Source: an uncultured Acidobacteriota bacterium
Lineage (GTDB): Bacteria; Acidobacteriota; Thermoanaerobaculia; UBA5066; Gp7-AA6
Assembly: GCA_963782585.1 (NCBI GenBank)
Contig: CAWAKL010000001.1
Span: 250,133 to 314,132, forward strand
Reading direction: 5' to 3'
DNA: 64,000 nucleotides
The notes beneath the pieces are model-generated. The model was not told the DNA's origin. It did not search any database and saw nothing but the letters and a program-made list of their open reading frames with translations. The position numbers and the translations under genes were made by a program. Shown piece after piece: positions 18,907 through 40,538 of the stretch (position 1 is the first letter of the stretch; each line of letters opens with the position of its first letter).

Positions 18907-21063
18907 ATGCGGGACATTCTGGCCTGGGCCCTGACGACGGAGATTCTGGGCCTCGCCGTCCTCCCGATGCTGCGCGCGTACTTCGGCAACCGCCGGGACG
19001 CCGCCCTGCTCTCGCGACCCCTGGGCCTCGCGATCGTCGCGTATCTGGGCTGGGTGGTCTCGCTCCTGCTGAATCCTCCGGGCTTCCGCCGGGTCACACT
19101 CCTCGCGGTCGTCCTGGCCGTGGCCGCCGTCGGGTGGCTCGCCCGCCGCCGCAGCGCCGATGAGACGGCGATCCGCGAGCCGATCTGGGGAGACGAGGAG
19201 AAGCTCGCGGCGATCCTCTTCTGGGCCTCGGCCGGCGTCTTCATCGTCCTTCGGGCCGTCGGACCGGCCATCGTCGGCGCCGAAAAGTTCATGGACCTTG
19301 CGTTCGTGAACTCCCTGGCCCGCTACTCCGCCATGCCGCCCGCGGACACCTGGCTTTCGGGTTCGACGATCAACTACTACTACTGGGGGTACCTGCTCGC
19401 CGCGGCGCAGGCCAAGCTCTCGGGAGTCGCGCCGCTGACCGCGTACAACCTCGCGCTCGCGTCGTTCGCCGGCTTTTCGTTCGTGTCGGCGGCCTGCCTC
19501 GGGCTGCGGCTCTCGCGCGGCAATCTCCGCGTCGGGCTGGGCGCCGGCGGCCTGACCGTCTTCGCCGGCAATCTCGCGGGCGCCTTCCATGCCTGGGCGA
19601 AACCCATCTCGACCGCTTTCGATTACTGGCCCGCGTCGCGCGTCATCGGCCCGGAGCAGCACAAGACGATCAACGAATTTCCTTTCTTCACCTTCTTTCA
19701 TGCGGACCTGCACCCGCACCTCATCGCCTTTCCCTACTTCATCGCGGCCTTCGTGGTCGCGCACCGCTGGGTCGAGGCTGGACGGCCGCAGGCACGCCGC
19801 GCCTGGCTGTGGGTGCTGCTCGTGGCTCTCGTCTGCGGCACGGCGCGCGCGGCGAACTTCTGGAACCTGCCGGTGATGGGCGTCCTGCTCGTCGTGTCGG
19901 GCGCCCTCTGGTTCACCCGGGGCGAACGACTTCCCCGATTCCCGCAGGCCGTCTCCGGAGTCCTCCTCGGCGCGGGCGTATTCGTGCTTTCGCTCGCCCT
20001 CTTCTACCTCTACACGGCGTCCTTCCAGCTCGAGAACCGGGGCCTCGGCCTTGCCACGATGTTCTCCGGGGCGATCGAGCACCTCGGCGTCTGGGGCATC
20101 CTCTTCGCGCTGTGCGGCGCCGCCCTCTGGCCGCGGGCCTCGGCCGCGGGGCCCGAAGACACGGAAGCCGCCCGACGGCGGCGCCACCTGATCCTGACGG
20201 TGGCCGCCAGCGTGTCGCTCGCCACGGGCTTCCTCCTGAAGAGGCCGGCGATGCCGATCCTGCTCTTCCTGCTCTTCCTCGCGGCCCGCTCCACCTGGCG
20301 GAGCCTGCGCGCCGAGACGGCCGATCCCGACGGCGTCTTCGCCGGGCTCCTCGTTCTGCTCGGCCTCGCGGTGATCGCGGGCTGCGAGGTCGTGTATCAC
20401 CGGGACACGTACGGCGTGGAGCTGCAGCGGATGAACACGATCTTCAAGTACTACCACCAGGCCTGGCCGCTGCTCGCGATCGGCGGCGCCGTGTTCGCGG
20501 GCCGCGCGTGGGACGCGGCTCCCGCGCGCCAGCGCGGCCTCTGGCGGCTCGGGCTCTCCGCCCTGGGCGTCCTCGCGCTCGCCTGGCCGTTGAACGTCAC
20601 GATCTCCCGAATCCGGCAGAAGGACGGCCCGCTCTCGCTCGATGCCCGGGGACCGCTCGCGAAGCGCAGCGCCGGCGATGCCGCGGCGGTCGACTGGTTC
20701 CTGAAGAACGCCCCCGTCGGCTCGACGATTCTCGAGGCGTCCGGCGATCCCTACACCGAGTACGCGCGCATCTCCTCGCACAGCGGCGTGCCGACCGTGC
20801 TCGGTTGGGCCAATCACGAGCTGCTCTGGCGCAACAACGACACGGAGGTGCAGGAGCGGCTCAACCGGATCCGCCACTTCTACACGGCGGGGGACCCGCG
20901 CGTCGCCTGGGACACGCTCGGCAAGTACCGCGTCACGCACGTCGTCGTGGGCGACATGGAGCGCCGGACGTATCCGAACGCCGACGTCGTGGGGACGTTT
21001 CCCTTCCTCACCCCCGTCCTGACGGGTGACACGACGATCTACGCCGTCACGCGCCCCGAATGA
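18907..21063 (+). CDS. DUF2298 ('Chlor_Arch_YYY'-type) large polytopic GT-C-like membrane protein
   Basis: ATG 18907 (MRDILAWALTTEILG…). Has the INYYYWGY motif and the conserved INEFPFFTFFHADLHPH block. Confidence 0.75.
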   Translation: MRDILAWALTTEILGLAVLPMLRAYFGNRRDAALLSRPLGLAIVAYLGWVVSLLLNPPGFRRVTLLAVVLAVAAVGWLARRRSADETAIREPIWGDEEKLAAILFWASAGVFIVLRAVGPAIVGAEKFMDLAFVNSLARYSAMPPADTWLSGSTINYYYWGYLLAAAQAKLSGVAPLTAYNLALASFAGFSFVSAACLGLRLSRGNLRVGLGAGGLTVFAGNLAGAFHAWAKPISTAFDYWPASRVIGPEQHKTINEFPFFTFFHADLHPHLIAFPYFIAAFVVAHRWVEAGRPQARRAWLWVLLVALVCGTARAANFWNLPVMGVLLVVSGALWFTRGERLPRFPQAVSGVLLGAGVFVLSLALFYLYTASFQLENRGLGLATMFSGAIEHLGVWGILFALCGAALWPRASAAGPEDTEAARRRRHLILTVAASVSLATGFLLKRPAMPILLFLLFLAARSTWRSLRAETADPDGVFAGLLVLLGLAVIAGCEVVYHRDTYGVELQRMNTIFKYYHQAWPLLAIGGAVFAGRAWDAAPARQRGLWRLGLSALGVLALAWPLNVTISRIRQKDGPLSLDARGPLAKRSAGDAAAVDWFLKNAPVGSTILEASGDPYTEYARISSHSGVPTVLGWANHELLWRNNDTEVQERLNRIRHFYTAGDPRVAWDTLGKYRVTHVVVGDMERRTYPNADVVGTFPFLTPVLTGDTTIYAVTRPE

Positions 21064-22208
21064 GGATCCTGATGGCGATCGACTACTACCGGCCGAACGT
21101 GTCGGGGCTGACGATCTACGTCGAGCATCTCTCCGAAGCGTTGGCGCGGCGGGGCCACACCGTCAGCGTCCTCACCAACCGTCACCTCCCCGAGCTCCCC
21201 CTCGAGAGCCGGGAGAATGGCGTCCGGATCGTGCGTGCCCCGGTGCTCGCGCAGGTCGGAAAGGCTCTCGTGGCCCCGGCGATCCTGGCCCGCGCTCTGG
21301 CGGAGCTTCCGCGTTCCGACGTCCTCCACCTCCACTCGCCCGCCGCCAACGCGATCCCGCTCTCGCTTCTGGCCGCTTCGCTTCGCGTGCCGATCGTGAT
21401 CACCTATCACTGCGACCTGCAGCTCCCGGCCTCCGGCGGGCCGGCGCTCGTGCGGATGCTCGCGCAGGCCTCCCAGAACTTCGCGCTCGACCGCGCCGAC
21501 CGCGTGATCACGTACACCGAGGACTACGCGCGGCACACGGCCCCGCTCGCCGACCGCCTCGAGAAGGTGGGCTGGATCCTGCCGCCGGTGACGGATCCGC
21601 CGAGGACGGGACGCGGCGCAGCCGAGGCCCGGAAGCGCTACGGCATCCGCGGGAAGCCCGTCATCCTCTTTCTCGGCCGCTTCGCCGAGGAGAAGGGGCT
21701 GCCGCATCTGCTGACGGCTTTCGCGGAGGTCCGGCGGCGGTTTCCGGAAGCGATCCTCCTGCTCGCGGGTGCGAAGCAGGTCGCCGGGGAGACGGTCTGG
21801 GAGCGCGTCGCTCCCCTGGCGGCCGATCCGGCGTCGGGCGTCCTCGCGCCAGGCATCGTTCCGCCGGCGGAGATCGCGGACCTCTTCGCTGTCTCCGACG
21901 TGCTCGCGTTGCCGTCGATCAATGCCACCGAGTCCTTCGGCCTCGTCCAGGTGGAGGCGATGCTCTCGGGCGTGCCGGTCGTCGCCTCCGACCTTCCCGG
22001 CGTGCGTCAGCCGGCCCGGCTCACGGGGATGGGCGAGATCGCCCGCATCGGCGACGCCACCGATCTCGCGCGGCAGCTCATCCGCGTCCTCGAGGCGCCC
22101 GAGCGGTACCGCAAAGACGCGGCCGAGATACGCGCGATCTTTCCGCCCGAGAAGACGCTCGACTTCTACGAGGCCACCTATCGCTCGCTCGCGGGAGGCT
22201 CCCGATGA
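21060..22208 (+). CDS. Glycosyltransferase family 4 (GT-B fold)
   Basis: ATGA overlap with the upstream gene. Shows a GT4-like C-terminal pattern (…SINATESFGLVQVEAMLSGVPVVASD…). Confidence 0.85.
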   Translation: MRILMAIDYYRPNVSGLTIYVEHLSEALARRGHTVSVLTNRHLPELPLESRENGVRIVRAPVLAQVGKALVAPAILARALAELPRSDVLHLHSPAANAIPLSLLAASLRVPIVITYHCDLQLPASGGPALVRMLAQASQNFALDRADRVITYTEDYARHTAPLADRLEKVGWILPPVTDPPRTGRGAAEARKRYGIRGKPVILFLGRFAEEKGLPHLLTAFAEVRRRFPEAILLLAGAKQVAGETVWERVAPLAADPASGVLAPGIVPPAEIADLFAVSDVLALPSINATESFGLVQVEAMLSGVPVVASDLPGVRQPARLTGMGEIARIGDATDLARQLIRVLEAPERYRKDAAEIRAIFPPEKTLDFYEATYRSLAGGSR

Positions 22209-23020
22209 CCGAGGCCGACCGCGCCGAAAGCATGCTCCGCGCCCACCTGCGCGAGATGCCGCTCCACCGCGTCATCATGCGCACGCTCGAAGCGCGGATC
22301 CTCGCGGAAGTCCCCTTTCCCCGCCCGATTCTCGACATCGGCTGCGGCGACGGCCACTTCGGGTCCGTCATCTTTCCGGACGGCGCCGACGTCGGCCTGG
22401 ATCCGGGGCTCGGGGACCTCTCCGAAGCCGGGCCCCGCGGCGTGTATCGGCTGCTCGTCTCCGCCGACTCGGGCGCGATGCCCTTCCCGCGGTCGTACTT
22501 CGGGTCGGTCGTCTCCAACTGCGTGTTCGAGCACATCCCCGACATCGACAGGACGGTCGCCGAGATTGCCCGCGTGCTCCGGCCGGGAGGCACGTTCGCG
22601 TGCACGGTCGTGGGCGAGAACTTCAGCGAGTTTCTGACGAGCGCCCGCGCATGGAGCCGTCTGGGCCTGGCGCGAGCGCACCGCGCGTACCTCGACTGGT
22701 TCAATCGGAAGTCGGTTCACTACCGTTTCGATTCGCCGCCGGTCTGGAAAGAGCGGTTCGAGCGGGTCGGACTCGAGGTCCGGCGGTGGCGCTACTACCT
22801 CTCCCCGGCGGCGGCGCGCGCCTTCCACCGAAGCCACTACGTCAGCCTGCCCCACCTCGCCGCGCGCAAGCTGACCGGCCGCTGGGTCCCGGTTCCCGCG
22901 CTCATGGACAACGCGTTCTGGGTGCGACGCCTCTCACGCTATACGGGCGAGCCCGAGCCCGGAGCGGGCTCATGCATCGCGTTCGTCTGCGCGCGGCGCC
23001 CCGATCCTCCTGTAAAATGA
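22205..23020 (+). CDS. Class I SAM-dependent methyltransferase
   Basis: ATGA overlap with the upstream gene. Has the ILDIGCGDGHFG motif. Confidence 0.8.
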   Translation: MTEADRAESMLRAHLREMPLHRVIMRTLEARILAEVPFPRPILDIGCGDGHFGSVIFPDGADVGLDPGLGDLSEAGPRGVYRLLVSADSGAMPFPRSYFGSVVSNCVFEHIPDIDRTVAEIARVLRPGGTFACTVVGENFSEFLTSARAWSRLGLARAHRAYLDWFNRKSVHYRFDSPPVWKERFERVGLEVRRWRYYLSPAAARAFHRSHYVSLPHLAARKLTGRWVPVPALMDNAFWVRRLSRYTGEPEPGAGSCIAFVCARRPDPPVK

Positions 23021-23045: not shown

Positions 23046-24107
23046 ATGCGATTCCTGATTACCGGCGGAGCCGGCTTCATCGGCTCGAACGCGGCGGCGC
23101 GGCTGCGCGAGCTCGGCCACGACGTGGTCGTCTTCGACAGCTTCGTCCGCGCAGCTTCGCGGTTCAACCGCGCATGGCTCGAGAGCCTGCATCCCGCCGT
23201 CCGCTTCATCGAGGGTGACGTCCGCGACGCCGGTGCCCTGCGGGACGCTCTCGCTCCGGATTTCGACGTGGTCCTTCATCTCGCCGGACAGGTCGCCGTG
23301 ACGACCTCGATCGTCGACCCGGTGACCGACTATGAGATCAACGCGCTCGGCACGTTCCGGCTCCTCGAGGAGCTTCGCCGCCGGCACGCCGGCGCCCCCG
23401 AACGGGCGCCGCTTCTGATCTACGCCTCGACCAACAAGGTCTACGGGCACCTGAGCATGGGAGAGACCGTCCGCGACGGCCGCTGGGACTTCCAGAACCT
23501 CCCGACCGGAGTCTCGGAGACGGAGCCCCTGTCGTTCGAATCGCCTTACGGCTGCTCCAAGGGCGCGGCCGATCAGTACGTGATCGACTACCACCGCAGC
23601 TTCGGCCTTCCCACCGTGGCCATGCGGCAGTCCTGCATCTACGGTCCGCGGCAGTTCGGCGAGGAGGACCAGGGCTGGGTGGCGTGGTTCGCGCTCGCGG
23701 CGGTGTTCGGCCTGCCGATCACGTTTTACGGCGACGGGCTGCAGGTCCGCGACCTCCTCTGGGTCGACGACCTCGTGGCGCTCTATCTCGCTGCGGCGCA
23801 GAAGCGGGACACGGTCTCCGGACGGGCCTACAACGTCGGAGGCGGCCCGGGGTACCGGCTGTCGCTCAAGGAGCTCATGGGCATGCTCGAGACGCGCCTG
23901 AAGCGGCCGATCCCGGTCGCCAAGGCGCCCACGCGTCTGGGCGACCAGCCCGTCTTCTACTGCAACGTGGACCGCGCCATGCGCGAGCTCGACTGGAAGC
24001 CCCGCGTTTCGCCGGAGCAGGGCGTGGACCGCCTGCTCGCCTGGATCCAGGGGAACCGTGAAGAGATCGCGCGCTTCCTCACCAAGAAGGGCCTGCAGAT
24101 CGCGTGA
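23046..24107 (+). CDS. NAD-dependent epimerase/dehydratase (extended SDR; CDP-/UDP-sugar epimerase-like)
   Basis: GGAGFIGS Rossmann motif. YxxxK as YGCSK. Confidence 0.85.
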   Translation: MRFLITGGAGFIGSNAAARLRELGHDVVVFDSFVRAASRFNRAWLESLHPAVRFIEGDVRDAGALRDALAPDFDVVLHLAGQVAVTTSIVDPVTDYEINALGTFRLLEELRRRHAGAPERAPLLIYASTNKVYGHLSMGETVRDGRWDFQNLPTGVSETEPLSFESPYGCSKGAADQYVIDYHRSFGLPTVAMRQSCIYGPRQFGEEDQGWVAWFALAAVFGLPITFYGDGLQVRDLLWVDDLVALYLAAAQKRDTVSGRAYNVGGGPGYRLSLKELMGMLETRLKRPIPVAKAPTRLGDQPVFYCNVDRAMRELDWKPRVSPEQGVDRLLAWIQGNREEIARFLTKKGLQIA

Positions 24108-27100
24108 CCCGGCTTCCCCGACGGCGCGCGCGCGCGATCCTTCTCGGAATCCTCCTGCTCGGAGGCCTCTTCCGGTTTCAGGGCCTGAACTGGGACGAAG
24201 GCCATCACCTCCATCCCGACGAGCGCTTCATCTCGATGGTCGAGGAGAAGCTGGCCTTCCCGAAGGAGCCCGGCGCCTACTTCGATTCCAAACGCTCGAC
24301 GCTCAACCCCTACAACCGCGGCGAGGGCTCCTTCGTCTACGGGACGCTGCCCATGGTCATGGCCAAGGCGGTGGCGCCGCTGTTCGGGAAGAAGGGCTAC
24401 GGCGAGACGCACCTGGTCGGCCGCGCGCTCTCGGGCTTCTTCGACCTCGTCACCGTGTGGCTCGTCTACCGGATCACCCGCCGCTTCACGCACCGCCGCG
24501 CCGCGCTCTTCGCCGCGGGGCTCTCGGCCTTCTGCGCGCTGGGCATCCAGCTCTCCCACTTCTGGGCCGTCGATGCCGTCCTGACGGCCTTCACCGCCGC
24601 GGCGCTCCTCGGGGCGGTCCGGATTGCCCAGGACCGTTCGGGCCTCGCCGGCGATGCCCTGACGGGAGCGGCGATCGGCCTGGCCGCGGCGTGCAAGATC
24701 ACGGCTCTCGCGCTCTTCGCGCCGGTCGGCATCGCCCTGCTCGTTCGGGCGCTCGCACGCGGGCGGGCCCGCGGCTGGATGGTCGGGCAGATCTTCGCCG
24801 CGATTCCCCGCGGCCTTCTCCTGCTCGCCTCGGCCGCGGTGACCGTCCGGATCTTCTTGCCGCACGTCTTCCTCGGGCCGAGCCCCCTCTCCTTCCGCCT
24901 CGACCCGCGCTGGATCGACGACCTGAGGAAGCTCAAGCTCTTGTCGAGCTCGGTCGCCGGGTTCCCGCCGGCCCTCCAGTGGGCGGGCCGCACGCTCTTT
25001 TTCCCCGTCGAGAACTTCGTCCTCTGGGGAGCGGGCGTGGCATTCGGCCTCGCGGCGATCGCCGCCCTCCTCTGGTCGTTCGGCGCCATCCTCCGCCGCC
25101 GGCAGTTCGTCCTCGCTCCGCTGAGCCTCTACGTCCTCTTTCTCTTCGGATACCACGGCCTGACGCTCGTGAAGTCGATCCGGTACTTCTACCCGGCGTA
25201 CCCCGCCCTGGCCGTGCTGACCGGCGTCGCATTCTCCTCGTGGCTGTCGCGCTCGCGGACTCCCGGCCGCGCGCGCTTCGCCCGAATCTGCGCGCTCGTC
25301 GTTCTCGCCGCGACGTTCCTCTGGGCGGTGGCCTTCACGTCGATCTACCGCCGCCCGAACACGCGCGTGGAGGCGACCCGGTGGATCTACTCGCATGTGC
25401 CGCCGCCGAAAGCCTTCGCCAACGAGAGCTGGGACGACGGCCTGCCGATGCCGATGCCCAACTACGACCCGGCGCGTTATGCCGGGCCTTCGCTGCCCCT
25501 CTTCGACCCGGATTCCCCCGAGAAGGTGGAGGCCGTCGTCACAGCCCTGACGCAGGCCGATTGGGTGGCCGTGACCTCCGGCCGCGTCTACATGAACGTC
25601 ACGCGCGTGCCGGTCGTCTTTCCGATGTCGATCGCCTACTACCGGGCTCTGTTCGACGGTGAGCTCGGCTTCCGGCGGGCGGCCGACTTCACGTCCTACC
25701 CGTCCCTCGGCCCGCTGCGTTTTCCCGACGACCGTGCCGAGGAGCAGTTCACCGTCTACGACCATCCGCGCGTCCTGCTCTTCCAGAAGACCCCGGAGTT
25801 TTCGCCCGCGAAGGCCCGCGCTCTGCTCTCGGCCGCCATTCCCCAGACCCCGCCGACCATGCACGACTGGGAGCGCTGGCCGCGGGCCCTGCGCCGCGTC
25901 AGCGCGCCGGTGCGTCCCGATCGGAGCGCGCGGCCCGAAACTCCGGCGCCTTCGTACGCCGAGCCGGGCGAGCCCGTGGGCCGCTCCTTCGGCGCCGCGG
26001 CCGTCTGGTATCTCGGCCTCGCCCTCGTCGGGCTGCTCGGCGCGCCGCTCTGCTTCGCGGCCTTCCCGCGGTTCGCCGACCGCGGCTTCGGATTCGCCCG
26101 GATCTTCGGGCTCGTGATCGTCACGTATCTGCTGACCCTCGCAGTGACGTTCCGCGTCCTGGCCAACGGACGTCGGGCGGCCCTCGTCTGCCTCCTGCTT
26201 CTCGCGGCCGCATCCGCCTGGACCTTCCTGCGGAACCGCCACGACCTCCTCCGCTTCGTGCGCGAGAACCGCCGCGCGCTCCTCCAGAGCGAGCTCGTGT
26301 TTGCCGCGGGCTTCGTCCTCTTTCTCGGCATCCGCGCCCTCAACCCCGAGATCTTCTGGGGCGAGAAGCCGATGGACTTCTCGATCCTGAACATCCTCGC
26401 GCGCACGCGCTCCCTGCCGCCGTCCGATCCGTGGCTGGCGGGAGCTCCGCTCGGCTACTACACGTTCGGCCAGGAGATGGTCGTCTTCCTGACGTTTCTG
26501 ACGAACCTCTCCACGCGCTTCACGTTCAACCTGGCCTTCGGCATGCTGGGCGGCACGATCCTGCAGGGAGCGTTCTCGCTGGCGCGCAACTGGGGCGGCC
26601 GCCTTCGCGCGGGCATCGCCGGGGCCGTGCTCACGCTGCTCCTCGGCAATCTCTCGGGCCTGCGCGAATGGCTGGAGCGCAAGCGCCCCCTCGACTGGGA
26701 CTACTTCTGGGCGACCTCGCGGGTCATCCGCGACACGATCAACGAATACCCGTTCTGGAGTCTCGTCTTCGCGGACCTCCACGCCCACGTTCTCGCGATT
26801 CCAGTCTTTCTCTTCTTCGCCGCGGCCGCTCTCCACTACGTCCGGCTCCACGCCCTCCCGGCGGGGTCCTGGGGCCGGCGGCTCTCGGGCGCGGTGCTGC
26901 TGGGTTTCGTCGCGGCGTGCCAGGCCCTCACGAACGCGTGGGACGTGCCCGTTCTCACCGGGATGCTCGTCCTCGTCATCCCCGCCGCGGCCGCCCTGAT
27001 GCCGGGAGTGACGCTCGCGGGTCTCGGCCGGGCGGGCGCGGGGCTTCTCGTAGGCGCCGGGTCGGCCTATCTCTTCGCCCTGCCCCTCTGGTTCCGCGCG

Positions 27101-31763: not shown

Positions 31764-33806
31764 CTACCTCAGCCGCACCTCGCGGAGATGCACATGCTGG
31801 GGCTCTCCGGCGTTCACGTCCCGCACCGAGATTCTCACCGTCGCCACCGGGCCGCCGATCGGCGGTAGCGGCACCGTCACCGTGGGGTCGGCAGGCAAGT
31901 CCCGGTAGAGCTGCGAGAAAGACCCCTCTCCCGATGGCCCGGAGACGTCGACCGTGATCTCGCAGTGCATGCTGCCGAGCGTCAGAGCCAGCTCCCGAAG
32001 CGGCCGCGGCGGGTCGAAGTGGACGGCCACGACCGCGGGATTCGCGCCCCCGGTTCGGACGACCGAAGCATCCTCGCCGTCGAAGAGGTGGAACGCTCCG
32101 CCGACGTCGAAGACGGAATGTTCGACTTCGGCTTTCGCGCCGCCGATAACGACCTCTTCCCTCACGAGCCTTCGCCATTCCTGCTGCTCGGCCGCGAGAA
32201 CCTTCTCGAATTCCGGCGCGTAGCGCAGCCAGACGGCGCGGAACCCGGGCCGGCCGTCGGGGTACAGAATCGTCTTCTCGAGGCGCAGCGGCTCGAAGCG
32301 CGGGTCGGCCTTCGCCTGCTGATATTCGGGCTCCGTCAGGACGGCGAGGGTCTCCGCGGGGATGTCCTGCTTCTGATAGCGGAACCAGTCGATGTTGGCG
32401 ACCAGCATGCGCTCCTGCCCGGGAACGAAAAACTCCAGAAGGTCGTCCATGCCGTTGGCCCAGTCCGGTGAGACCACGATGAGGGCGTCGGGGTGACGCT
32501 TTCTCAGCCGCGCGACCTCGCCAAGGACCTCGCGCCCCCCCCACTGCATTCCGTAAAGGCCGTAGTCGCGATACCACGTCGGTCCGTGGACGAGGGCGTC
32601 GGCGAGCATCGCCCCCTGCGACACGGCGAGGCCCGCCCAGACGAGCGCGCCGACGACGATCGGGCGCACCCATCGCGTGAGAAACCGCAGAAGAGGATCC
32701 GCGGCGACTCCGACGAGCATCCCGAACACGACGACCAGGATCATCGCCCGCGTGATGCCGGAGTGGACGATGGCCGCTCCGGCCGGCGCGCAGAGGAAGG
32801 CCACGAGCAGGGTGCGCTCGCCGGGTGAGCGGATCCGCCAGGCGCAGAGGACCGCGCCGGCCACGATGAAGGGCAGGGCCAGCAACGGAACGTGCGTGTA
32901 ACCCTTCATCGTGTGGCGGGCGATGTCGTCCGGCGGATTCGGGCGGAACCAGTACCGCGGGTTGTAGGCGTTGGCGTACTCGCGGCCATAGAGGCCGAGC
33001 TTCTCCGGCAGACTGCGCCGGGAGTCCGTCCAGTAGGAGTCGAGGCTCCGCAGGCGCTCCCCGACTTCGCGCGAGTGCGCCCGGACGAATCTCACGTACG
33101 GGAGCGCGAGAAGAACGGCCAGGGCCGCGGCGGCGAGTACCGTCCGGCGGTTCTTCCAGTGGAATCGGGCGTCGACGACTCCGAGCAGCAGCGCCGTCGC
33201 GACGATGACCGGCTGGAACGTGTTGTACCCGTAAAACGTGAGGGCGCCGAAGACGGCGGCGGCGTAGAGCGAGCGGGTTCGCCCGCCCCGGTAGCGCAGG
33301 TAGAAGTAGAGGAACCAGACGTAGGCCGCGGTCGCGAGCATGAGCTCGAAGGCGATGCGCGTGTGCAGGAACCATCCCGGGAAGCCGGAGAGCGCGAGGA
33401 TGCCGACCCAGTAGAAACGGAGCTTCAGGAAGTCGCGGAGGATCAGGCCGGCCGCCAGCATGGCCGAGAAGAGGACAGCGACCGGCACAGCGCGCGCGAC
33501 GAAGACCGACCGGGGCAGGAGCTTCTCCGGAAGAACCTGGAGGTAGACGCCGACGCTCAGGTTGAAGAACTCGGTGTTGCGGAAGTAGGCCGGAAAGAGC
33601 TCGCCCTTCTCGCCGCGAAACCCGTTGGCCGAGAGGCGCGCGGCCTGGACGGTCTGCACGGCCTCATCGCAGAAGAAGAAGATCGGGAACCTCTCGAGGC
33701 CCCAGAGCCGGGTCCCGAGAAAGACGGCGAGCGTCAGCGCGAAGAAGACGAGGTTTTGCCGGGGCGTGGGGCCGTCGCGGCCTTCGCCCATCGCCCTCGC
33801 GTCCAT
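31764..33806 (-). CDS. PMT/ArnT-like GT-C membrane glycosyltransferase with a C-terminal beta-sandwich (galactose-binding-like) domain
   Basis: 680 aa. FFCDEAVQ (DE motif) precedes multiple TM segments. Convergent with gene 29056..31760. Confidence 0.75.
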   Translation of the reverse strand: MDARAMGEGRDGPTPRQNLVFFALTLAVFLGTRLWGLERFPIFFFCDEAVQTVQAARLSANGFRGEKGELFPAYFRNTEFFNLSVGVYLQVLPEKLLPRSVFVARAVPVAVLFSAMLAAGLILRDFLKLRFYWVGILALSGFPGWFLHTRIAFELMLATAAYVWFLYFYLRYRGGRTRSLYAAAVFGALTFYGYNTFQPVIVATALLLGVVDARFHWKNRRTVLAAAALAVLLALPYVRFVRAHSREVGERLRSLDSYWTDSRRSLPEKLGLYGREYANAYNPRYWFRPNPPDDIARHTMKGYTHVPLLALPFIVAGAVLCAWRIRSPGERTLLVAFLCAPAGAAIVHSGITRAMILVVVFGMLVGVAADPLLRFLTRWVRPIVVGALVWAGLAVSQGAMLADALVHGPTWYRDYGLYGMQWGGREVLGEVARLRKRHPDALIVVSPDWANGMDDLLEFFVPGQERMLVANIDWFRYQKQDIPAETLAVLTEPEYQQAKADPRFEPLRLEKTILYPDGRPGFRAVWLRYAPEFEKVLAAEQQEWRRLVREEVVIGGAKAEVEHSVFDVGGAFHLFDGEDASVVRTGGANPAVVAVHFDPPRPLRELALTLGSMHCEITVDVSGPSGEGSFSQLYRDLPADPTVTVPLPPIGGPVATVRISVRDVNAGEPQHVHLREVRLR

Positions 33807-33819
33807 GCTCCGCCGGCGC

Positions 33820-34383
33820 TCAGCGAAGCTTGAGCGTACGAATGTGGATGTGGCCGTCGTCGCTGTCGAGGTCGAGAATCTCGAGGCGGAGGGACTCGAT
33901 CGGGGTGCCGCCCGTGTCGAAGTCCAGCTCGAGCTCCGGGTCCGCTCCCGCGCCGCGGAAGTCCTTCGTGTAGGTCTTCGGCGCGCCGCCTCCGGCGGGC
34001 TGTACGATCGCGGTCACCCGGAATTCCGCGCCCCCCATCTTGAGAGAGACGCCGCCGAGCGGACGGGCCTCCGGAAGCTTCAGCTCGAGGATCGCCGGGT
34101 TCGCTTTCTCGGTGCGCGCCATCGAGGCGGGATTCGTGTCGAACATGTCCGAGGTCTGTCCGCCGTCCCACTTGCTGTGCGTGACGAGGACGAGATGCCC
34201 GTCGAGGAGCGCCTTGTCCGAGACGAGGGCCGGGGCGGCAGCGGCCGCCGCTTCTCCGGAGGCCGCCGGGCCCCCGCCGGCGGCGGGAGGAGCCGCGGCG
34301 CCACCCGCCGCTTCCTTCCGGGAGCACGCCGGGGAAAACAACGCAAGACTCAGAACGAGAGCCGTCAGGCCGCGTTTCGACAC
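33820..34383 (-). CDS. Lipoprotein (signal peptide + Cys, …LALFSPAC) carrying a stand-alone copy of the beta-sandwich domain found at the C-terminus of the downstream GT-C gene
   Basis: GTG 34383 preceded by GGAGG. The tail (HIHIRTLKLR) parallels …HVHLREVRLR of gene 31764..33806. Confidence 0.7.
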   Translation of the reverse strand: MSKRGLTALVLSLALFSPACSRKEAAGGAAAPPAAGGGPAASGEAAAAAAPALVSDKALLDGHLVLVTHSKWDGGQTSDMFDTNPASMARTEKANPAILELKLPEARPLGGVSLKMGGAEFRVTAIVQPAGGGAPKTYTKDFRGAGADPELELDFDTGGTPIESLRLEILDLDSDDGHIHIRTLKLR

Positions 34384-34460: not shown

Positions 34461-36482
34461 TTGATTCACACGTCGGACTTCGCCCCCGCGCGCGACGAGG
34501 CGGGTTCGTCGTTCGCGGATCCGGCGGCGCGCGCTTCCAGCGGTCTGCTCGCCCTCGGGATCGCCGGCGTCCTGCTTCTGACGGCCGCCTGCTGGCCGAT
34601 GCAGCGGCACGCGCTCCCGGCCTGGGCGGCCGCGACCCTCGCGGCTGGCCTCCTCTCGTGGCTCGCCGTCGCCTGGAAATCGGCCGGCGCGGCGGAGGCG
34701 TTGCCCGGGATCGCGCCGGCGCCGGCCAACGTCAACTGGCTGGCCCCCGCGCTCCTCGCCGCCCTCGCGCTCGCAGCTCTCTCCTGGACGCGCACGGCGT
34801 CCGGCCGGTTCGAGATGGTTGGCGTCGCCTCCTGGCTCGGCGCGGTCGTGATCTGGCTCTGGGGGTGGTCGCAGAGCTTCCACGAGACGCCTCGCGACGC
34901 GCGGCCCGCGCCACCGGCGCCAGCGTCTCCCCGCGCTCGACTGTCCGTGGGGCTCGCCCTCCTCGCCATTCTCGCCGTCGGCGCGTTCTTCCGGTTCCAC
35001 GACCTCGCCGGAATTCCTCCGCATCCCGGAAGCGATCATGCCGAGGACCTCCTGAACGTCGAGCAGCTCTCGCGAGGGGAGCGGCCCGTCTTCTTCCCGA
35101 CGAACACGGGGCAGGCGCCGCTCCCCTTCTACTTCGAGTACCTGCTGGTGAAACTCGGCCTGCCGATCAACTACCTCATGCTCAAGATCTCGACCGCCCT
35201 CGTGGGGATGCTCGCGATCCCGGCGATGTACGTTGTCGGCCGCGAGCTCGGCGGCGCGCCCCTCGGGCTCGTGGCCGCCGCGCTGTGCGCCTGGAGCAAG
35301 TGGCCGACGCTGGGCGCACGCCGGGGCCTCACGTTCGCGTGGGCGGTCTTCCCGGCGGCCCTCTTCCTGGCGGCGATCCTCCGGTACATGCGGCGAGGCG
35401 ATCGTCCGAGCGCGCTCTCCGCGGGCTTCTGGCTGGGCCTCGGCCAGTACGGATACAACGCTTTCAAGATCGTCCCGGCGATGGTGCCCCTCGCCTTCGG
35501 GCTCTGCCTCTTCGATCGGCGCTGGAGGCGCCATCGCGGGCGGCTCGTCTTCGACGGCGTCCTCGTCGCGGCCACGGCCCTGCTCGTGTTCCTGCCGCTG
35601 CTCCAGTACATGTTGCAGCGTCCCCAGGACTTCTGGTACCGCGCGATGACGCGCGCGGGCAGCCAGGAGAGGCCGCTCCCCGGCTCGCCCGCCGCCCTCT
35701 TCGCCGGAAACCTCGGCCGCATGGCCCTGGCTTTCCACTACCGCGGGGATCAGGCCTGGATCAACACCGTGGCGGAGGAGCCGTTTCTCGATCCCGTCAC
35801 GGGCGCGTTGCTGCTCGCTGGCCTCGTCGTCGCGGCCGTTCTGATCGTTCGAGGCTCGACCCGCTGGGCCCTCGTGGTCCTCTCCCTGTTCGTGCTGACG
35901 CTCGCCTCGACGCTCGCGCTCGCCTTCCCGGTCGAGAACCCCGGGATCAACCGCGCCTCTGTGGCCATCCCCTCCGTTCTCGTGCTCGCGGGGTTGCCGG
36001 TCGTCTGGCTGCTGCGCCGGGCGCGGGAACGCGGACGCGGATGGCTGTTGGTCGCCGGCGGCGTTCTCGCGGCGCTGGGCGCGCTGTCCCTCCAGCAGAA
36101 CTACGAGAGTTACTTCGTGCGCTTTCGCCACGAGCAGGTGACGATCCTCGAGCCAACCATGGACGTCGTGCGGGTCATGCGCGAGTACCGCGACAACGAG
36201 GGCGTCCCGTTCGACAACGCCTATCTCCTCAACACGACGAACTGGATCGACGGCCGCTGCATCGACTTCGAGATCGGGGACCGCCTCTGGTCCGGGCCCC
36301 ACGACGTCCCGCCCGCACAGCCGGTGCCCCTCATCCGGGACCGGCCGCTCGTGTTCTTCGTCCACCAGAGCGACCGCCCGCGCCGGGAGCAGCTCAAGAC
36401 CGACTACCCGAACGCCGAGGAACACTTCGTCGCGCAGCCGTTCCGGGACCGGAGCTACTTCACGTATTTCGTTCCGCGCTGA
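34461..36482 (+). CDS. Glycosyltransferase family 39 (ArnT/PMT-like) GT-C membrane protein
   Basis: 673 aa. TTG 34461; an alternative ATG is at 34599. Has PGSDHAED (DE-type motif) and many TM helices. Confidence 0.7.
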   Translation: MIHTSDFAPARDEAGSSFADPAARASSGLLALGIAGVLLLTAACWPMQRHALPAWAAATLAAGLLSWLAVAWKSAGAAEALPGIAPAPANVNWLAPALLAALALAALSWTRTASGRFEMVGVASWLGAVVIWLWGWSQSFHETPRDARPAPPAPASPRARLSVGLALLAILAVGAFFRFHDLAGIPPHPGSDHAEDLLNVEQLSRGERPVFFPTNTGQAPLPFYFEYLLVKLGLPINYLMLKISTALVGMLAIPAMYVVGRELGGAPLGLVAAALCAWSKWPTLGARRGLTFAWAVFPAALFLAAILRYMRRGDRPSALSAGFWLGLGQYGYNAFKIVPAMVPLAFGLCLFDRRWRRHRGRLVFDGVLVAATALLVFLPLLQYMLQRPQDFWYRAMTRAGSQERPLPGSPAALFAGNLGRMALAFHYRGDQAWINTVAEEPFLDPVTGALLLAGLVVAAVLIVRGSTRWALVVLSLFVLTLASTLALAFPVENPGINRASVAIPSVLVLAGLPVVWLLRRARERGRGWLLVAGGVLAALGALSLQQNYESYFVRFRHEQVTILEPTMDVVRVMREYRDNEGVPFDNAYLLNTTNWIDGRCIDFEIGDRLWSGPHDVPPAQPVPLIRDRPLVFFVHQSDRPRREQLKTDYPNAEEHFVAQPFRDRSYFTYFVPR

Positions 36483-36490
36483 GGCGCCGC

Positions 36491-36521: not shown

Positions 36522-36542
36522 TCGCACAAACGGAACTCGGGG

Positions 36543-37361
36543 TTATTCCCAGCCGAGGCCGAGGGCCTTCGCGAGGAACGTCGCCATCTGCCCGCGGGTC
36601 ACCGGGCTGTCGGGGCAGAACAGCGGCGGCGCCTGCTGACACCCGCCGGTCACACCCGACGCCGCGAGGGCCTCGATGAACTGGAAGAAGATGTGGCCCG
36701 TCGGCACGTCGTTAAACGTCGCAACGGCCGGCGCGGGAGACGGTTCGAGGACGTAACCCAGAACGACGCCCGAAAAGCTGTTGGTCCCGTCGCTCGCTCC
36801 GAATTTGACGTCCAGCAGCGTCTGGCCGAGGAAGTTGTTCACGCGGTGGCTGATCGCGCTGTCCGTGACGATGTGGCACGGGTCGGGAACATCGCTCACC
36901 GTCGTGAGGCTCGTCAGGGGCGTGTCGTCGCAGAAACCTTCGAAGTCGCAATTCCAGACTGTGAGGTTCAGGTGCAAGTCTGTCGTGCTGGCGTCGCAAG
37001 CGTCGAGCTCCACATAAACGATGCGGGCACCGCCGGGGATGGTCGGCGACGAAACGAGATGGTTGAAGCCATCGCCGACGAAGTACCGCTGGTAGTCATA
37101 GCCGTCGAAGTCCGGATTCCACGTGCTCGTGTAAGTGTCGGTGCTGACATCGGAGGTGAACTGCATCACCGAGACTCGCTGGTACTGAATGCCGACGCCG
37201 CCGAACTCGGGGGACATCAGCGGCCGCACTTTCGGGGTTCTGGGGCTCGTGTTCCGAAGAGGCTGGGCCCTCTTCTTCGACGCCGAGGCCTCCTGACCCA
37301 TCGCGATACCTGCCGCGAAGACCGAAACGAACGACAAGGCGAGGATTCCCCTGATTTTCAT
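36543..37361 (-). CDS. Secreted protein with a C-terminal S-layer-homology (SLH) domain; visibly lower GC than its neighbours
   Basis: Signal peptide MKIRGILALSFVSVFAAGIAMGQEA. The C-terminus (FNDVPTGHIFFQFIEALAASGVTGG…VTRGQMATFLAKALGL) fits the SLH pattern. RBS is AAGGAGCCGGAG-ATG. Confidence 0.7.
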   Translation of the reverse strand: MKIRGILALSFVSVFAAGIAMGQEASASKKRAQPLRNTSPRTPKVRPLMSPEFGGVGIQYQRVSVMQFTSDVSTDTYTSTWNPDFDGYDYQRYFVGDGFNHLVSSPTIPGGARIVYVELDACDASTTDLHLNLTVWNCDFEGFCDDTPLTSLTTVSDVPDPCHIVTDSAISHRVNNFLGQTLLDVKFGASDGTNSFSGVVLGYVLEPSPAPAVATFNDVPTGHIFFQFIEALAASGVTGGCQQAPPLFCPDSPVTRGQMATFLAKALGLGWE

Positions 37362-37484
37362 CTCCGGCTCCTTCCCAAATGAAATAAAAACTCCGTTCCC
37401 CGTAGAGAGAGAACCGCCCGCGAAGTCCGAGGCAAGGAAGCAGTGCCGGCTATTCTACCAGCGCAGACCCGTGAGGGAGGTCAC
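37362..37484 (-). promoter_or_regulatory. AT-richer upstream/leader region of the SLH gene containing a TAGAAT -10-like hexamer and a long leader
   Basis: Local drop in GC (…ggtagaatagcc… / …gagtttttatttcatttgggaaggagccggagATG on the minus strand). No experimental support. Confidence 0.25.
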
Positions 37485-38843
37485 CTACGAGCGGAAAACC
37501 TTCTCCTCGCTTCCGTCCAGCCAGCGGTCGACGAGCTCGACACCCTGCATCAGCGAGTGGTCCTGGTTTCCGATCTCGTACTTCCAGGAGCCGAAGCGGC
37601 CGCGCGAGAAGATCCCGCGGGGCTCGAGGTAGGCGTGGATCGTCTCCAGGGCCGGGTTCCGATCGGTCGACGGGATCGGATAGGAGTGGCCGGCGTGGAT
37701 CAGGAACACCGTCTCGATGAGCGGCAGGTCGGACGGTTGGAGGATGCCCTCCGCCACCAGCCCGTCCACGACGGCCTTGCCGAAGTCCCCCTTCGGGAGC
37801 GGCTTGAACTTCGAGTAGGACGTCTCGGTCAGGACCGAGAAGTACCGGCTCGTGTCGCCTCCCGGCACGATCTGGGGCGAGTAGTTGGAGAGGTACGTCA
37901 TCCGGTAGAACGGCGTCTCCAGGTTCGGGAAGTAGATCCAGTTCTTGTCCGACGGCGACGGCCGCTTGAGGCCGATGCCGACCGAGAAGAGGCGGTTGAA
38001 GAGCAGCTTCGAGGCCGCGGCGCGCACGCTCTCGGGGGCGCGCGTCAGGCGCGCGACGAGCGCGTCGAGGGGCATCGTCGAGAGCAGCCGGTCGTACGAC
38101 CGCGTGGAGCCGTCGGCGAACGTGACTTCCCGCTTCTCCTCGTCGATCGAGACCACCCGCTTGTGGAGGCGGACGCGATCGCCCAGAAACGGGAGGACAG
38201 CCTTCCAGAGCCCGAGCGTTCCGCCGCGCGCCGGATAACCGAACTTGGCGTTGGGACCCCACTCCGTGGATCTCGGAACGAGCGTCGTCTCGATGGCCTT
38301 CCGCCAGTCCACGACCGAGACCCGCTCGGCGATCCAGTAGTGCCCCATCTTCGCGAGCGGCGTCGCCCAGACCTTGAAGTTGTAGGGGTTCATGAAGTGC
38401 TTGGCGATGCCGGCGCCGAACTTCGCGAGCACCCACTCCTCGAAGTTCGTGAAGGCCTTGTCCTTCGAGATGGTCTGGGACTCGACGAGGCCGATCAGGC
38501 ACTCGAGCATCGCCTGTTCGGGGAGCGAGGAGAGGTGGTTCTGGAACGGGTAGCGGACGTACTTGTCCTCGAACTTGATCCAGCTCTCCCGATCGATCCA
38601 GCGGATCCCGTCCGAGCCGAGGACCTTCGCGAGGAAATCGTTGAAGTACTTGTAGCCGGAAAAGATGATGTGGCCCGAGACGTCCCACGTCCAGCCCTTC
38701 GGGTCGACGAAGCTCGTCGCGAGCCCGCCGACCTGGCCGGCGCGTTCGAAGATCTCGAAGCCCGTCTCGCCCCGTTCGACGAGCCGGTAGGCCGCGCCGA
38801 GCCCGGTCGGGCCGGCGCCCAGGATGACGGTGCCGCCGCTCAC
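37485..38843 (-). CDS. glf: UDP-galactopyranose mutase, eukaryote-type (long-form) family
   Basis: GTG 38843 overlaps the GT2 stop (GTGA). From memory, blocks match fungal/protozoan UGM: ILGAGPTGLGAAYRL, YPFQNH, FMNPYNFKVWA, WGPNAKFGYPARGG, SRGRFGSWKYEIGNQDHSLMQGVELVD. Confidence 0.75.
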   Translation of the reverse strand: MSGGTVILGAGPTGLGAAYRLVERGETGFEIFERAGQVGGLATSFVDPKGWTWDVSGHIIFSGYKYFNDFLAKVLGSDGIRWIDRESWIKFEDKYVRYPFQNHLSSLPEQAMLECLIGLVESQTISKDKAFTNFEEWVLAKFGAGIAKHFMNPYNFKVWATPLAKMGHYWIAERVSVVDWRKAIETTLVPRSTEWGPNAKFGYPARGGTLGLWKAVLPFLGDRVRLHKRVVSIDEEKREVTFADGSTRSYDRLLSTMPLDALVARLTRAPESVRAAASKLLFNRLFSVGIGLKRPSPSDKNWIYFPNLETPFYRMTYLSNYSPQIVPGGDTSRYFSVLTETSYSKFKPLPKGDFGKAVVDGLVAEGILQPSDLPLIETVFLIHAGHSYPIPSTDRNPALETIHAYLEPRGIFSRGRFGSWKYEIGNQDHSLMQGVELVDRWLDGSEEKVFRS

Positions 38844-39625
38844 GCCTTCTTCCTCGTCACGCGCTTCAGGGCGTCGGCCTGCTTCATCTCCCTCCGCAGG
38901 TCGAAGAGGTACCGGATGACCCGCAGGATCGTGCCCAGCATCTTGAACGGACGGTGAATCGACTGGCCGGCCTCCCGCGGGAAGTGGCGGACGATCACCT
39001 CGTCGACCTTCCACCCCGCGATCCGGCAGCGCGCATAGATCTCGTCGCCGACGAAGTTGATCCGGTGCTTGATCTCGATGCGGCGCGCGACGTCCCGCCG
39101 GAACGCGCGGCAGCCCGCGTTGATGTCGTGCAGGGGCGAGCCCAGGATCCAGTGCGAGAGGATCCGCAAGCCGCGCGAGAGGATCAGCCGGCCCACCGGA
39201 TCGTGGCGGACCTTCTTCCAGCAGAAGACGACGTCGGCGCCGCGGTCGATCGCCTCGATAAAGAGCGGGGCGTCGCCCATGGTGTGCTGGCCGTCGCCGT
39301 CCACGACCATCACGACTTCGCCCGGGACGTTTCGCAGCGCGGTCTCCGTCGCCACGGCGTAGCCCTTGTTGCCGTCGTGGTGGACCACCGAGACGCGCGG
39401 GTCCTTTTTGGCCAGCTCCTCGGCGATCTCGCCGGTGCGGTCCCGGCTCCCGTCGTTCACGACCACGACGTGCCAGGTGAGGCCCGGGATCGCCGAGAGC
39501 GAGGTGACCGCCTCCTCGACGGTCTTCGCGATCAGGTCCTGCTCGTTGTAGGCGAGGAAGCCGACGCCGAAGCGGACCTTCCGCTCGGCGGTCTCCGTCG
39601 CGGGGGCCCGGGAATCAGCGGCCAT
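38840..39625 (-). CDS. GT2 polyprenyl-phosphate hexose synthase (DPM1/Ppm1-like, soluble type)
   Basis: 261 aa. VVVVNDGSRDRT and DGDGQH motifs are typical of dolichol/polyprenol-phosphate mannose or glucose synthases. Overlaps the UbiA-gene stop by 11 nt. Confidence 0.8.
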   Translation of the reverse strand: MAADSRAPATETAERKVRFGVGFLAYNEQDLIAKTVEEAVTSLSAIPGLTWHVVVVNDGSRDRTGEIAEELAKKDPRVSVVHHDGNKGYAVATETALRNVPGEVVMVVDGDGQHTMGDAPLFIEAIDRGADVVFCWKKVRHDPVGRLILSRGLRILSHWILGSPLHDINAGCRAFRRDVARRIEIKHRINFVGDEIYARCRIAGWKVDEVIVRHFPREAGQSIHRPFKMLGTILRVIRYLFDLRREMKQADALKRVTRKKA

Positions 39626-40538
39626 AGATGATCCAGCCGGCCGTGGCCACCCAGCCGATGACGACCAGAAGAAGCCAGGGGTCGTCGGTCAGCAGCGCGC
39701 GGGTCGGGTTGCCGCCTCCTCCGCCCTTGTACACCAGCCGGACGTAGCGAGCGATTCCGAGCACGACGAAAGGCACCGTCGGCGCGAGCGAGCGGCCGTA
39801 GTGCGTGACCGTCGCGGGCGAGGTGCTGTAGGCGGCATAGCCGGCGACGGTGGCCAGTCCCGTGACGATGAAGAGATGGTCCAGGCCCTCCTCGCGATAC
39901 GCGGCGAGGGCGGGCCGATGCCCGGGCGCGGCGTTGAGAAACTCCCACTGCCGCTTGCCCGCCACGAGAAAGAGGGCGAGGAGGTACGCGCAGCCCATCA
40001 GAAACAGGGAGGGATGCACGGCGGCGAGGGCCGCGCCGGCGAGCGCCCGCAGCGGCATTCCCGCCGCGACCACGAGCGCTTCGAGAAACGGCACGCGCTT
40101 CCAGAGAAGCGAGTAGGTCAGCATCAGCGCGGCATAGACCGCGCACCAGAAACCGAACGGGCGCGAGAGGAGGAACGCCGCCCCGAGGCCGGCGGCCTCC
40201 AGGATCGCCGCGACGGAGATGGCCGTCGACGGCGTGAGCCGGCCCGAGGCGAGAGGGCGGAATCTCTTGACCGGGTGCGCCCGGTCGCGCTCTCGGTCCG
40301 CGACGTCGTTGACGAGGTAGATGCCGCTCGTGATGACGCAGAAGACCGCGACCCCCGCGGCGGCCAGGGCCCAGCCGGCCGGCTCGCCGAGAGCCACGCC
40401 GAACAGAAACGGCAGCGGCACGACCAGGTTCTTGACCCACTGGGCCGGCCGCATCGCGGCCAGGAGCGCGCTGGCGACTCCGCCGGAAGTAGACAAGGGT
40501 TCCGCGGGCGTCGCGTCTCCCGGCGCTGGCGCAGACAT
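39615..40538 (-). CDS. UbiA-family decaprenyl-phosphate phosphoribosyltransferase-like enzyme (Rv3806c/DPPR synthase family)
   Basis: RPAQWVKN, YLVNDVADRERDRAHPVKRFRPLASG and AGKRQWEF blocks match my recollection of the mycobacterial DPPR synthase. Confidence 0.75.
   Translation of the reverse strand: MSAPAPGDATPAEPLSTSGGVASALLAAMRPAQWVKNLVVPLPFLFGVALGEPAGWALAAAGVAVFCVITSGIYLVNDVADRERDRAHPVKRFRPLASGRLTPSTAISVAAILEAAGLGAAFLLSRPFGFWCAVYAALMLTYSLLWKRVPFLEALVVAAGMPLRALAGAALAAVHPSLFLMGCAYLLALFLVAGKRQWEFLNAAPGHRPALAAYREEGLDHLFIVTGLATVAGYAAYSTSPATVTHYGRSLAPTVPFVVLGIARYVRLVYKGGGGGNPTRALLTDDPWLLLVVIGWVATAGWIIYGR

Follow-up and report, generated by a model that had tools for sequence, protein, structure and literature searches.

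Within a 64-kb window of an uncultured Thermoanaerobaculia (Acidobacteriota) genome, the window being the whole stretch of DNA under study, a block of ~22 kb (positions 18907-40538) was analyzed. We read it as a vertically inherited envelope-glycan locus, in which glycosyltransferases of the GT-C fold would perform extracytoplasmic glycosylation from polyprenyl-monophosphate-linked sugars, and give this reading a probability of about 0.5. The block contained 13 genes in four transcription units and encoded six GT-C-type modules in five proteins, two of the DUF2298/YYY family and four PMT_2-like, together with an operon for a UbiA-family phosphoribosyltransferase-like enzyme (G13), a GT2 enzyme (G12) and a UDP-galactopyranose mutase (UGM, G11). 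The gene combination is more than chance, with synteny in 10 of the 11 related Acidobacteriota loci.

Because the window has a GC content of ~70% throughout, genes were called from third-position GC and frame plots first, and hidden Markov model (HMM) tests were applied after. Synteny was assessed by tblastn of every block protein against 80 loci, each centred on a G7 homologue and given an L number below. Negative results for the window refer to its annotated open reading frames (ORFs), which make up most, not all, of the 64 kb. The genes of the block are as follows.

18907..21063, plus strand: G1, stand-alone DUF2298/YYY membrane protein of 718 aa, a predicted GT-C whose C-terminal globular domain is AglB-like
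21060..22208, plus strand: G2, cytoplasmic GT4 (GT-B) glycosyltransferase with Glycos_transf_1 and Glyco_trans_4_4; ATGA junction with G1
22205..23020, plus strand: G3, class I S-adenosylmethionine (SAM) methyltransferase; Methyltransf_11/23/25
23046..24107, plus strand: G4, extended short-chain dehydrogenase/reductase (SDR), CDP-tyvelose 2-epimerase-like; Pfam Epimerase 1.9e-51
24104..29059, plus strand: G5, triple fusion of 1651 aa with a PMT_2-like GT-C (~aa 1-620), a DUF2298/YYY GT-C (aa 629-1334) and an NHL beta-propeller (~aa 1375-1640)
29056..31760, plus strand: G6, TIGR03663 (Agl23-type) PMT_2-like membrane protein with a C-terminal NHL propeller, frame broken
31764..33806, minus strand: G7, PMT_2-like GT-C with a C-terminal CBM32/discoidin-like beta-sandwich (~aa 545-680, nt 31767-32174)
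33820..34383, minus strand: G8, small protein, secreted or lipoprotein-like, paralogous to the CBM32-like domain of G7 but standing alone
34461..36482, plus strand: G9, PMT_2-like GT-C of 673 aa with an extra N-terminal transmembrane segment, not DUF2298
36543..37361, minus strand: G10, secreted Ser/Thr-rich protein (17% Ser+Thr) with one C-terminal SLH-like domain (nt 36582-36719)
37485..38843, minus strand: G11, eukaryote-type UGM
38840..39625, minus strand: G12, soluble or peripheral GT2 of 261 aa, of the polyprenyl-phosphate glycosyltransferase type (DPM1/ArnC/GtrB/PgfS/PpgS-like)
39615..40538, minus strand: G13, UbiA-family polyprenyl-phosphate 5-phosphoribosyltransferase-like enzyme; PF01040

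The transcription units were G1-G6 (plus strand), G8-G7 (minus), G9 (plus) and G13-G12-G11-G10 (minus). A reading of this DNA made earlier from its sequence only had described translational coupling of neighbouring genes by 4-nt overlaps, and such start/stop overlaps were found at five junctions (G1/G2, G2/G3, G4/G5, G5/G6 and G12/G11); at G13/G12 the overlap was 11 nt. Most of the gene identities in the sequence-only reading were borne out. HMM annotation agreed with its GT4 (G2) and SDR (G4) and placed the two NHL fusions at the C-termini of G5 and G6, while its single beta-sandwich fusion reappeared in the structural model of G7. The several PMT/ArnT-like enzymes correspond to four PMT_2-like modules (the N-terminus of G5, G6, G7 and G9). 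Its count of six GT-C enzymes is right for modules but not for proteins, which number five. A third DUF2298 domain had also been counted and was ruled out: when the window was searched by tblastn with both YYY modules, only G1 and the middle of G5 were found, and G9 was PMT_2-like by hhalign. Likewise, only one of two predicted SAM methyltransferases was recovered; G3 stands alone in the block, and the intergenic gaps are too small for a second.

Donor enzymes and glycosyltransferases

G13 had been proposed to be a mycobacterial-type phosphoribosyltransferase, and it aligned end to end with Rv3806c (8j8j; 8.4e-28, residues 21-303 against 13-298), motif included. The G13 loop YLVNDVADRERDRAHPVKRFRPLASG was aligned with YLVNDVRDVEADREHPTKRFRPIAAG of Rv3806c; it contained the motif NDVxDxExDRxHPxKRFRP, and both NDxxDxxxD and GKR were conserved. 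The NDxxDxxxD residues of the catalytic loop have been reported to be essential (PMC11127046). At the level of family, fold and motif, G13 is an enzyme of the DPPRS/PPPRS type. Directly upstream of the UbiA gene and on the same strand, positions 40596-41834 (minus) encode a secreted protein of ~410 aa with a His/Gly-rich C-terminus and no family match; it occupies the same position in L008 (76%) and may belong to the donor operon.

The GT2 domain of G12 was recognized by PF00535 (1.9e-29), and no transmembrane helix was found in the protein. Its best matches in the PDB were DPMS (5mlz, 2e-15) and ArnC (4e-15), with GtrB also among the best solved relatives, in agreement with the DPM1-like assignment of the earlier reading. 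The top NCBIfam models were those for Dol-P-hexose transferase, PgfS, ArnC, AglJ and PpgS, along with one for PgaC/IcaA, all of them below their equivalog cut-offs; the best was the haloarchaeal dolichyl-phosphate hexose transferase (70 bits, cut-off 375 bits). By these profile and structure matches G12 is placed in the polyprenyl-phosphate sugar-synthase branch of GT2.

G11 was suggested to be a UGM of the eukaryotic type, and indeed it matched the Trypanosoma cruzi enzyme end to end (4dsg; 2.2e-99, query residues 5-444), followed by the Aspergillus fumigatus UGMs at ~1e-95. The conserved blocks YPFQN, NFKVWA and C-terminal RFGxWxYExGNQDHS were present. No solved bacterial-type (Glf) UGM was matched at E<=0.001, and Pfam gave only Amino_oxidase and NAD_binding_8. 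Among relatives G11 was 73-94% identical, the homologues listed all being at least 73% identical. Public records name these homologues 'protoporphyrinogen oxidase' or 'FAD-dependent oxidoreductase', and the Thermoanaerobaculia UGM has probably been misannotated systematically.

G1 matched DUF2298/TIGR03662 over its full length at 483.9 bits (cut-off 300.25 bits). G1 was modelled with AlphaFold2 from 22 sequences (pLDDT 84, pTM 0.90), and in this predicted structure and the fold search the protein showed a polytopic membrane core with the GT-C fold. The predicted fold was the first direct support in this analysis for DUF2298 as a GT-C family. Residues E126, K127, M129 and D130 were invariant in the 22 sequences and are located, in the model, in a loop/helix after a transmembrane helix. 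The relationship between YYY and GT-C proteins rests on the fold search, and sequence-level comparisons gave no signal: the hhalign probability between the YYY family and the PMT_2-like families was at most 3% with thin alignments, and the YYY profile had zero matches among PDB sequences at E<=10. Of the two YYY modules, G1 carries the YYYxG motif as INYYYWGY and G5 a partial one, GYYTFG. No functional paper on DUF2298, TIGR03662 or PF10060 was found in the literature. In the TIGRFAMs descriptions, TIGR03662 and TIGR03663 are said to co-occur in Chloroflexi and Archaea.

The domains of G5 were matched by PF13231 (N-terminal), PF10060 (4e-84), TIGR03662 (462.3 bits) and NHL (4e-36), and the same PMT_2+YYY fusion was also found in a Chloroflexota locus (L057). 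G6, which adjoins G5 directly, matched TIGR03663 at 315.6 bits (cut-off 126.25 bits) over model positions 5-430 of 435 and has the N-terminal DE and HGP motifs (HHDES and YHGPF). Its reading frame changes from frame 0 to frame 2 near 31292/31293 (window 31284-31300), inside the NHL domain, where the window is 1 nt short relative to four orthologues (L010, L007, L016 and L008); the downstream frame keeps its full coding signal, and NHL repeats occur on both sides of the break. Programmed frameshifting and a pseudogene were set aside, as the extra base is carried by four of the four aligned orthologues and the L004 orthologue is an intact ORF of 901 aa. The break is probably a sequencing error, since the aligned orthologues carry the base, the flanking LigD gene has a second apparent frameshift, and many genes are split in related loci from long-read metagenome-assembled genomes (MAGs); a very recent inactivating mutation is possible.

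The window's own G7 and G9 proteins gave no Pfam match at E<=0.01, so that the PF13231 gathering score was not reached, and their GT-C status is based on homologues, on hhalign and on the G7 model. Both were related to PMT_2/ArnT-type enzymes by profile or fold, and in both the first transmembrane helix is followed by a DE motif, which in G7 is the invariant pair D47-E48. Many G7 homologues have a precomputed PF13231 match; the Chloroflexota L057 orthologue of G9 matched PF13231 at 31.8 bits, and G9 itself had hhalign probabilities of 97% to the family of the G5 N-terminus and 95% to the G7 family. The model predicts that G7 is a GT-C with a carbohydrate-binding-type module. G8, encoded upstream of G7 on the same strand, was 30% identical over 137 aa to residues 547-680 of G7 (BLASTP 1e-17).

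Conservation and origin of the cluster

The nearest relatives were uncultured Acidobacteriota MAGs whose homologues are labelled Thermoanaerobaculia. The order G2-G13 was kept entire in six of them (L004, L005, L007, L008, L010 and L016; 65-78% G7 identity), and L008 also shares the flank with a MerR-TPR gene and a gene for a 503-aa protein. In four more distant relatives (L009, L011, L012 and L015; 44-50% at G7), UbiA, GT2, UGM and G7 were contiguous and co-directional, with G9 next in line, though ~3 kb further on in L015. G5 and G6 were near this run in L009, L012 and L015, the exception being the truncated L011. This arrangement agrees with the sequence-only reading in placing GT-Cs beside polyprenyl-phosphate furanose-donor enzymes, and the synteny search as a whole made the ~22-kb block a real, conserved cluster. 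Across relatives, identities were highest for the donor enzymes (67-94%), lower for the GT-Cs (40-87%) and lowest for G10 (29-50%).

Beyond the phylum, three Chloroflexota loci and one from Actinomycetota (L030, L038, L057 and L075) kept a core consisting of most or all of the SDR, GT4, methyltransferase, G9, G7 and PMT_2+YYY genes. In L057 (1-4118 and 12056-15235) the core was accompanied by LPG_synthase_TM (MprF-like, flippase-type), PA14, TPR, a GT87/ALG3-like GT-C, another PMT_2 and a GFO/IDH/MocA oxidoreductase.

The block had been called an island, a term that did not hold up. Block and flanks alike had a GC content of 0.68-0.71, the one exception being a 2-kb bin (36001-38000, 0.645), and a horizontally acquired island was rejected on this composition, on the gene order shared in six MAGs and on the core common to Chloroflexota. 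No evidence of an integrase, tRNA or repeats was seen at the block, none of these having been specifically sought. Since synteny extends through the Acidobacteriota and the core occurs in Chloroflexota and Actinomycetota, gene order and homology identify the block as a vertically inherited, lineage-specific elaboration of an old, cross-phylum, GT-C-rich cluster rather than a recent acquisition.

Proposed pathway and alternatives

In the pathway that we propose, the substrates, the flipping step and the acceptor are what we infer. G13 would form polyprenyl-P-ribofuranose-5-P from phosphoribosyl pyrophosphate, its 5-phosphate would be removed by a phosphatase encoded elsewhere, and the sugar may then be epimerised. 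G11 would provide UDP-galactofuranose (UDP-Galf), and the translationally coupled G12 would load a hexose, most plausibly Galf, onto polyprenyl phosphate, so that the G12-G11 pair would form a second donor branch. The donors would be flipped across the membrane, for which the Agl23-type G6 is, by analogy, the only candidate within the block. G7 and G9, encoded by the PMT_2-type GT-C genes most tightly linked to the donor operon, would pass the furanoses on to an acceptor glycan, which the CBM32-like modules would hold. G1-G5, an older core with YYY and PMT_2 GT-Cs, GT4, methyltransferase and TyvE-like C2 epimerase, would supply or elongate this acceptor, and the end product would be a polymer associated with the cell wall or the outer membrane.

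The pentofuranose branch has a described counterpart. So-called 'three-component' systems attach alpha-pentofuranose side chains in the periplasm (Kelly et al., 2024; PMC11127046). Their parts are a UbiA-type polyprenyl phosphoribose synthase (PPPRS), which is accompanied by a phosphatase, then a flippase and a GT-C that bears a carbohydrate-binding module (CBM). Lipid-linked ribofuranose (Ribf) is converted to arabinofuranose (Araf) by DprE1/E2 or to xylofuranose by a single GalE-like SDR, a precedent for one SDR epimerising undecaprenyl-phosphate-linked Ribf, and variants in which several GT-Cs make the system more elaborate were also noted (PMC11127046). G13, G7 (GT-C with CBM) and G9 would fit this logic by analogy. 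As in ORF15-ORF14-ORF12 of Citrobacter youngae O1/O2 (GT136; PMC11127046), a UbiA-type phosphoribosyltransferase lies beside a GT-C with a C-terminal CBM, and an SDR epimerase is possible. The block differs in that its GT-Cs are PMT_2-like and DUF2298 and comprise six modules rather than one, in the addition of a UGM and GT2 pair, and in the absence of an O-antigen locus context.

The GT2 branch recalls the Haloarcula pair Agl22/Agl23, in which Agl22 is the Dol-P-hexose synthase and its partner Agl23 has lipid-linked-glycan flipping activity in vitro, shown within TIGR03663 only for H. hispanica Agl23 (PMC11182771 and its ref. 33). G6 belongs to TIGR03663 and has its DE and HGP motifs, and the best NCBIfam model of G12 is haloarchaeal; G6 is, however, bacterial and NHL-fused, G12 falls far under the cut-off, and there is no AglB-based N-glycosylation context. 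More generally, GT-C enzymes transfer glycans assembled on C55-P, and in synthesis of the lactococcal polysaccharide pellicle (PSP) several GT-Cs act on oligosaccharides that were first assembled on this carrier (PMC10821137). The Gtr, Gac/Csd and Pgf systems (PMC10821137) likewise combine a GT2 polyprenyl-P sugar synthase with one or more polytopic GT-Cs that act outside the membrane on envelope glycans or proteins, and Pgf is accompanied by an epimerase; the block, in contrast, has neither GtrA nor a Wzx flippase, has many GT-Cs, some fused to NHL or CBM domains, and its donor is probably a furanose. Compared with TIGR03662 and TIGR03663 as known, the families occur here in Acidobacteriota, NHL-fused and amid donor-synthesis genes that suggest a substrate class.

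The earlier statement that the combination resembles no characterised system was therefore overstated, as a UbiA-type phosphoribosyltransferase with a GT-C (and CBM) is the paradigm of PMC11127046 and a GT2 with an Agl23-like protein echoes Agl22/Agl23 (PMC11182771). Its comparison with grafted arabinogalactan genes was not sustained either. Relative to the mycobacterial set (glf-glfT2-Rv3807c-ubiA-aftB, DprE1/DprE2 and Emb/Aft), the UGM is eukaryotic rather than mycobacterial in type, the GT2 is a DPM1/ArnC-like protein instead of a GlfT polymerase, and the host belongs to the Acidobacteriota. The block has no PAP2 phosphatase and no Arabinose_trans-type Emb/Aft arabinosyltransferase, and the scanned window ORFs gave no match to FAD_binding_4/ALO, a DprE2-type SDR or Arabinose_trans.

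Several observations weigh against the proposed pathway. The three-component set was incomplete: a PPPRS-like enzyme and GT-Cs were present, but neither a 5-phosphoribose phosphatase (HAD/PRP or PAP2) nor a flippase (MATE, SMR, GtrA or Wzx) was found among the annotated window ORFs. The same ORFs contained no DprE1/DprE2 and no initiating phosphoglycosyltransferase, polymerase or exporter, and the acceptor's own pathway was not seen. G13 scored below the NCBIfam equivalog cut-offs (NF008977, 181.6 of 234 bits; NF008978, 173.2 of 207 bits), the sugar specificity of G12 is not fixed by its sequence, and G6 is frameshifted as it stands in the window. No UbiA, GT2 or UGM gene lay within 10 kb of the core in the Chloroflexota and Actinomycetota loci, and the core is therefore independent of these donors there. 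Finally, we know of no characterised polyprenyl-P-Galf donor, and no paper describing one was found.

An extended form of the proposal is speculative, and we would not expect it to prove correct: an undescribed lipid-linked hexofuranose donor, polyprenyl-P-Galf, made by the UGM and the DPM1-like GT2, together with a polyprenyl-P-pentofuranose would feed the PMT_2-type and DUF2298 GT-Cs and yield, outside the cytoplasm, a furanose-rich envelope polymer, a non-actinobacterial analogue of arabinogalactan. If true, this would be the first function for the DUF2298/YYY family, and the TyvE-like G4 might be a one-enzyme C2 epimerase that converts polyprenyl-P-Ribf to polyprenyl-P-Araf.

The coupling of G11 and G12 could also be explained otherwise. 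UDP-Galf may be used in the cytoplasm by a Leloir enzyme, either G2 or else G12 in the role of a small GlfT1-like enzyme that transfers Galf to a lipid-linked primer, with G12 otherwise making ordinary polyprenyl-P-Man, -Glc or -HexNAc and only the pentofuranose being lipid-delivered. We regard this as a serious alternative, albeit an unlikely one. To our knowledge, all characterised Galf transferases use UDP-Galf directly, and the top NCBIfam models of G12 are hexose, HexNAc and Ara4FN synthases. In addition, the Galf of the lactococcal PSP comes from UDP-Galf and is attached at the cytoplasmic face, ahead of the GT-C transfer step (PMC10821137). Against it stand the 4-nt overlap of the GT2 and UGM genes, which was also found in L002, and their adjacency in every Acidobacteriota locus that has both. 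Further, G12 matched DPMS, ArnC and GtrB at ~1e-15 and no GlfT2 structure at E<=0.001, while G2 lies in a different operon and is present in Chloroflexota without a UGM.

It is also conceivable, if rather improbable, that two functionally separate systems simply lie side by side in the block, an old YYY/PMT_2/GT4/methyltransferase/SDR module shared with Chloroflexota and a three-component furanose decoration unit (G13-G12-G11 with one GT-C), and act on different targets. The four cores that lack donor genes, the distribution of the block over four transcription units on both strands, and the unrelated contexts of most Chloroflexota G7 homologues speak for such a split. On the other hand, G7 and G9 take part in both arrangements: in Chloroflexota they lie beside SDR-GT4-methyltransferase, and in distant Acidobacteriota they come immediately downstream of UbiA-GT2-UGM. 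In addition, G5 and G6 were within ~10 kb in all Acidobacteriota loci with enough flank.

The GT-Cs might instead act on Ser/Thr of secreted envelope proteins in PMT- or Pgf-type O-glycosylation, with the NHL propellers binding substrates and the Ser/Thr-rich G10 as a main target; the CBM32-like modules of G7 and G8 favour a glycan over a protein acceptor, and we consider this possibility doubtful. The sequence-only reading had also put the glycan forward as a possible ligand or cargo of the SLH protein (G10); the CBM32-like modules point instead to an acceptor that is a glycan. Still less probable, in our judgement, is that the YYY modules, one of them with an AglB-like C-terminal domain, are oligosaccharyltransferase- or polymerase-like and move a preassembled lipid-linked oligosaccharide en bloc, the other GT-Cs only decorating.

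The enzyme types and the logic of lipid-P-sugars and GT-Cs were already known individually. What appear to be undescribed in the literature searched are this particular set of six GT-C modules, a defined donor context for DUF2298, the NHL and CBM32 fusions on these GT-Cs, the coupling of a eukaryote-type UGM to a polyprenyl-P GT2, and the lack of the canonical epimerases, phosphatase and flippase. DUF2298/YYY, a large family without functional literature, obtains a biochemical setting from its predicted GT-C fold beside lipid-linked donor enzymes. Under the envelope-glycan reading, the three-component pentofuranose paradigm would extend to Acidobacteriota, where it would be far more elaborate and involve several GT-Cs. 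The analysis also identified a UGM of the eukaryotic type with strong conservation in Thermoanaerobaculia, and its tight coupling to a polyprenyl-phosphate GT2 makes a lipid-linked Galf donor a testable hypothesis in these abundant soil bacteria, about whose envelope glycans almost nothing is known.

Remaining genes and flanking regions

The nearest solved structures to G4 were PDB 9rl0 (6e-85) and 1orr (5e-76), compared with ~1e-36 for GalE/RmlB, which makes it a candidate sugar C2 epimerase by homology. G10 was expected to be an SLH-domain protein. Its SLH score of 20.1 bits fell just under the PF00395 gathering score of 20.8, and PF00395 is on record for the orthologue in L001; G10 was rated borderline rather than negative on account of this orthologue. 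Orthologues of G10 were only 29-50% identical across relatives, its GC content in the window is lower (0.63), and in L008 (5289-7706) three divergent copies of the gene lie in tandem. G10 would seem to be a protein that is exposed at the surface and evolves fast.

Genes for non-homologous end joining (NHEJ) were found on both sides of the block, a separate LigD polymerase and ligase on the left (16975-18803) and Ku with a three-domain LigD on the right (43170-46704), so that the block, together with the 503-aa protein and the MerR-TPR regulator, lies between two NHEJ sets. Ku and MerR-TPR likewise adjoin the cluster in L002 and L009. The second LigD (44109-46704; phosphoesterase, ligase and primase-polymerase) is split over two frames near 45407-45415, another apparent frameshift that is consistent with sequencing errors in a long-read MAG. 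Outside the block, a short PMT_2/PMT-type GT-C (10060-11364, plus strand; PF13231, 35.2 bits) is encoded between a 2-oxoacid dehydrogenase E2 gene and lipoate genes (LipB-like, 12153-12842; LipA-like, 12851-13774). An unrelated alpha-glucan/glycogen cluster at 50823-59746 (minus strand) encodes a GH77 4-alpha-glucanotransferase, a DUF3417 phosphorylase, a GH57/DUF3536 protein and a GlgB-type branching enzyme.

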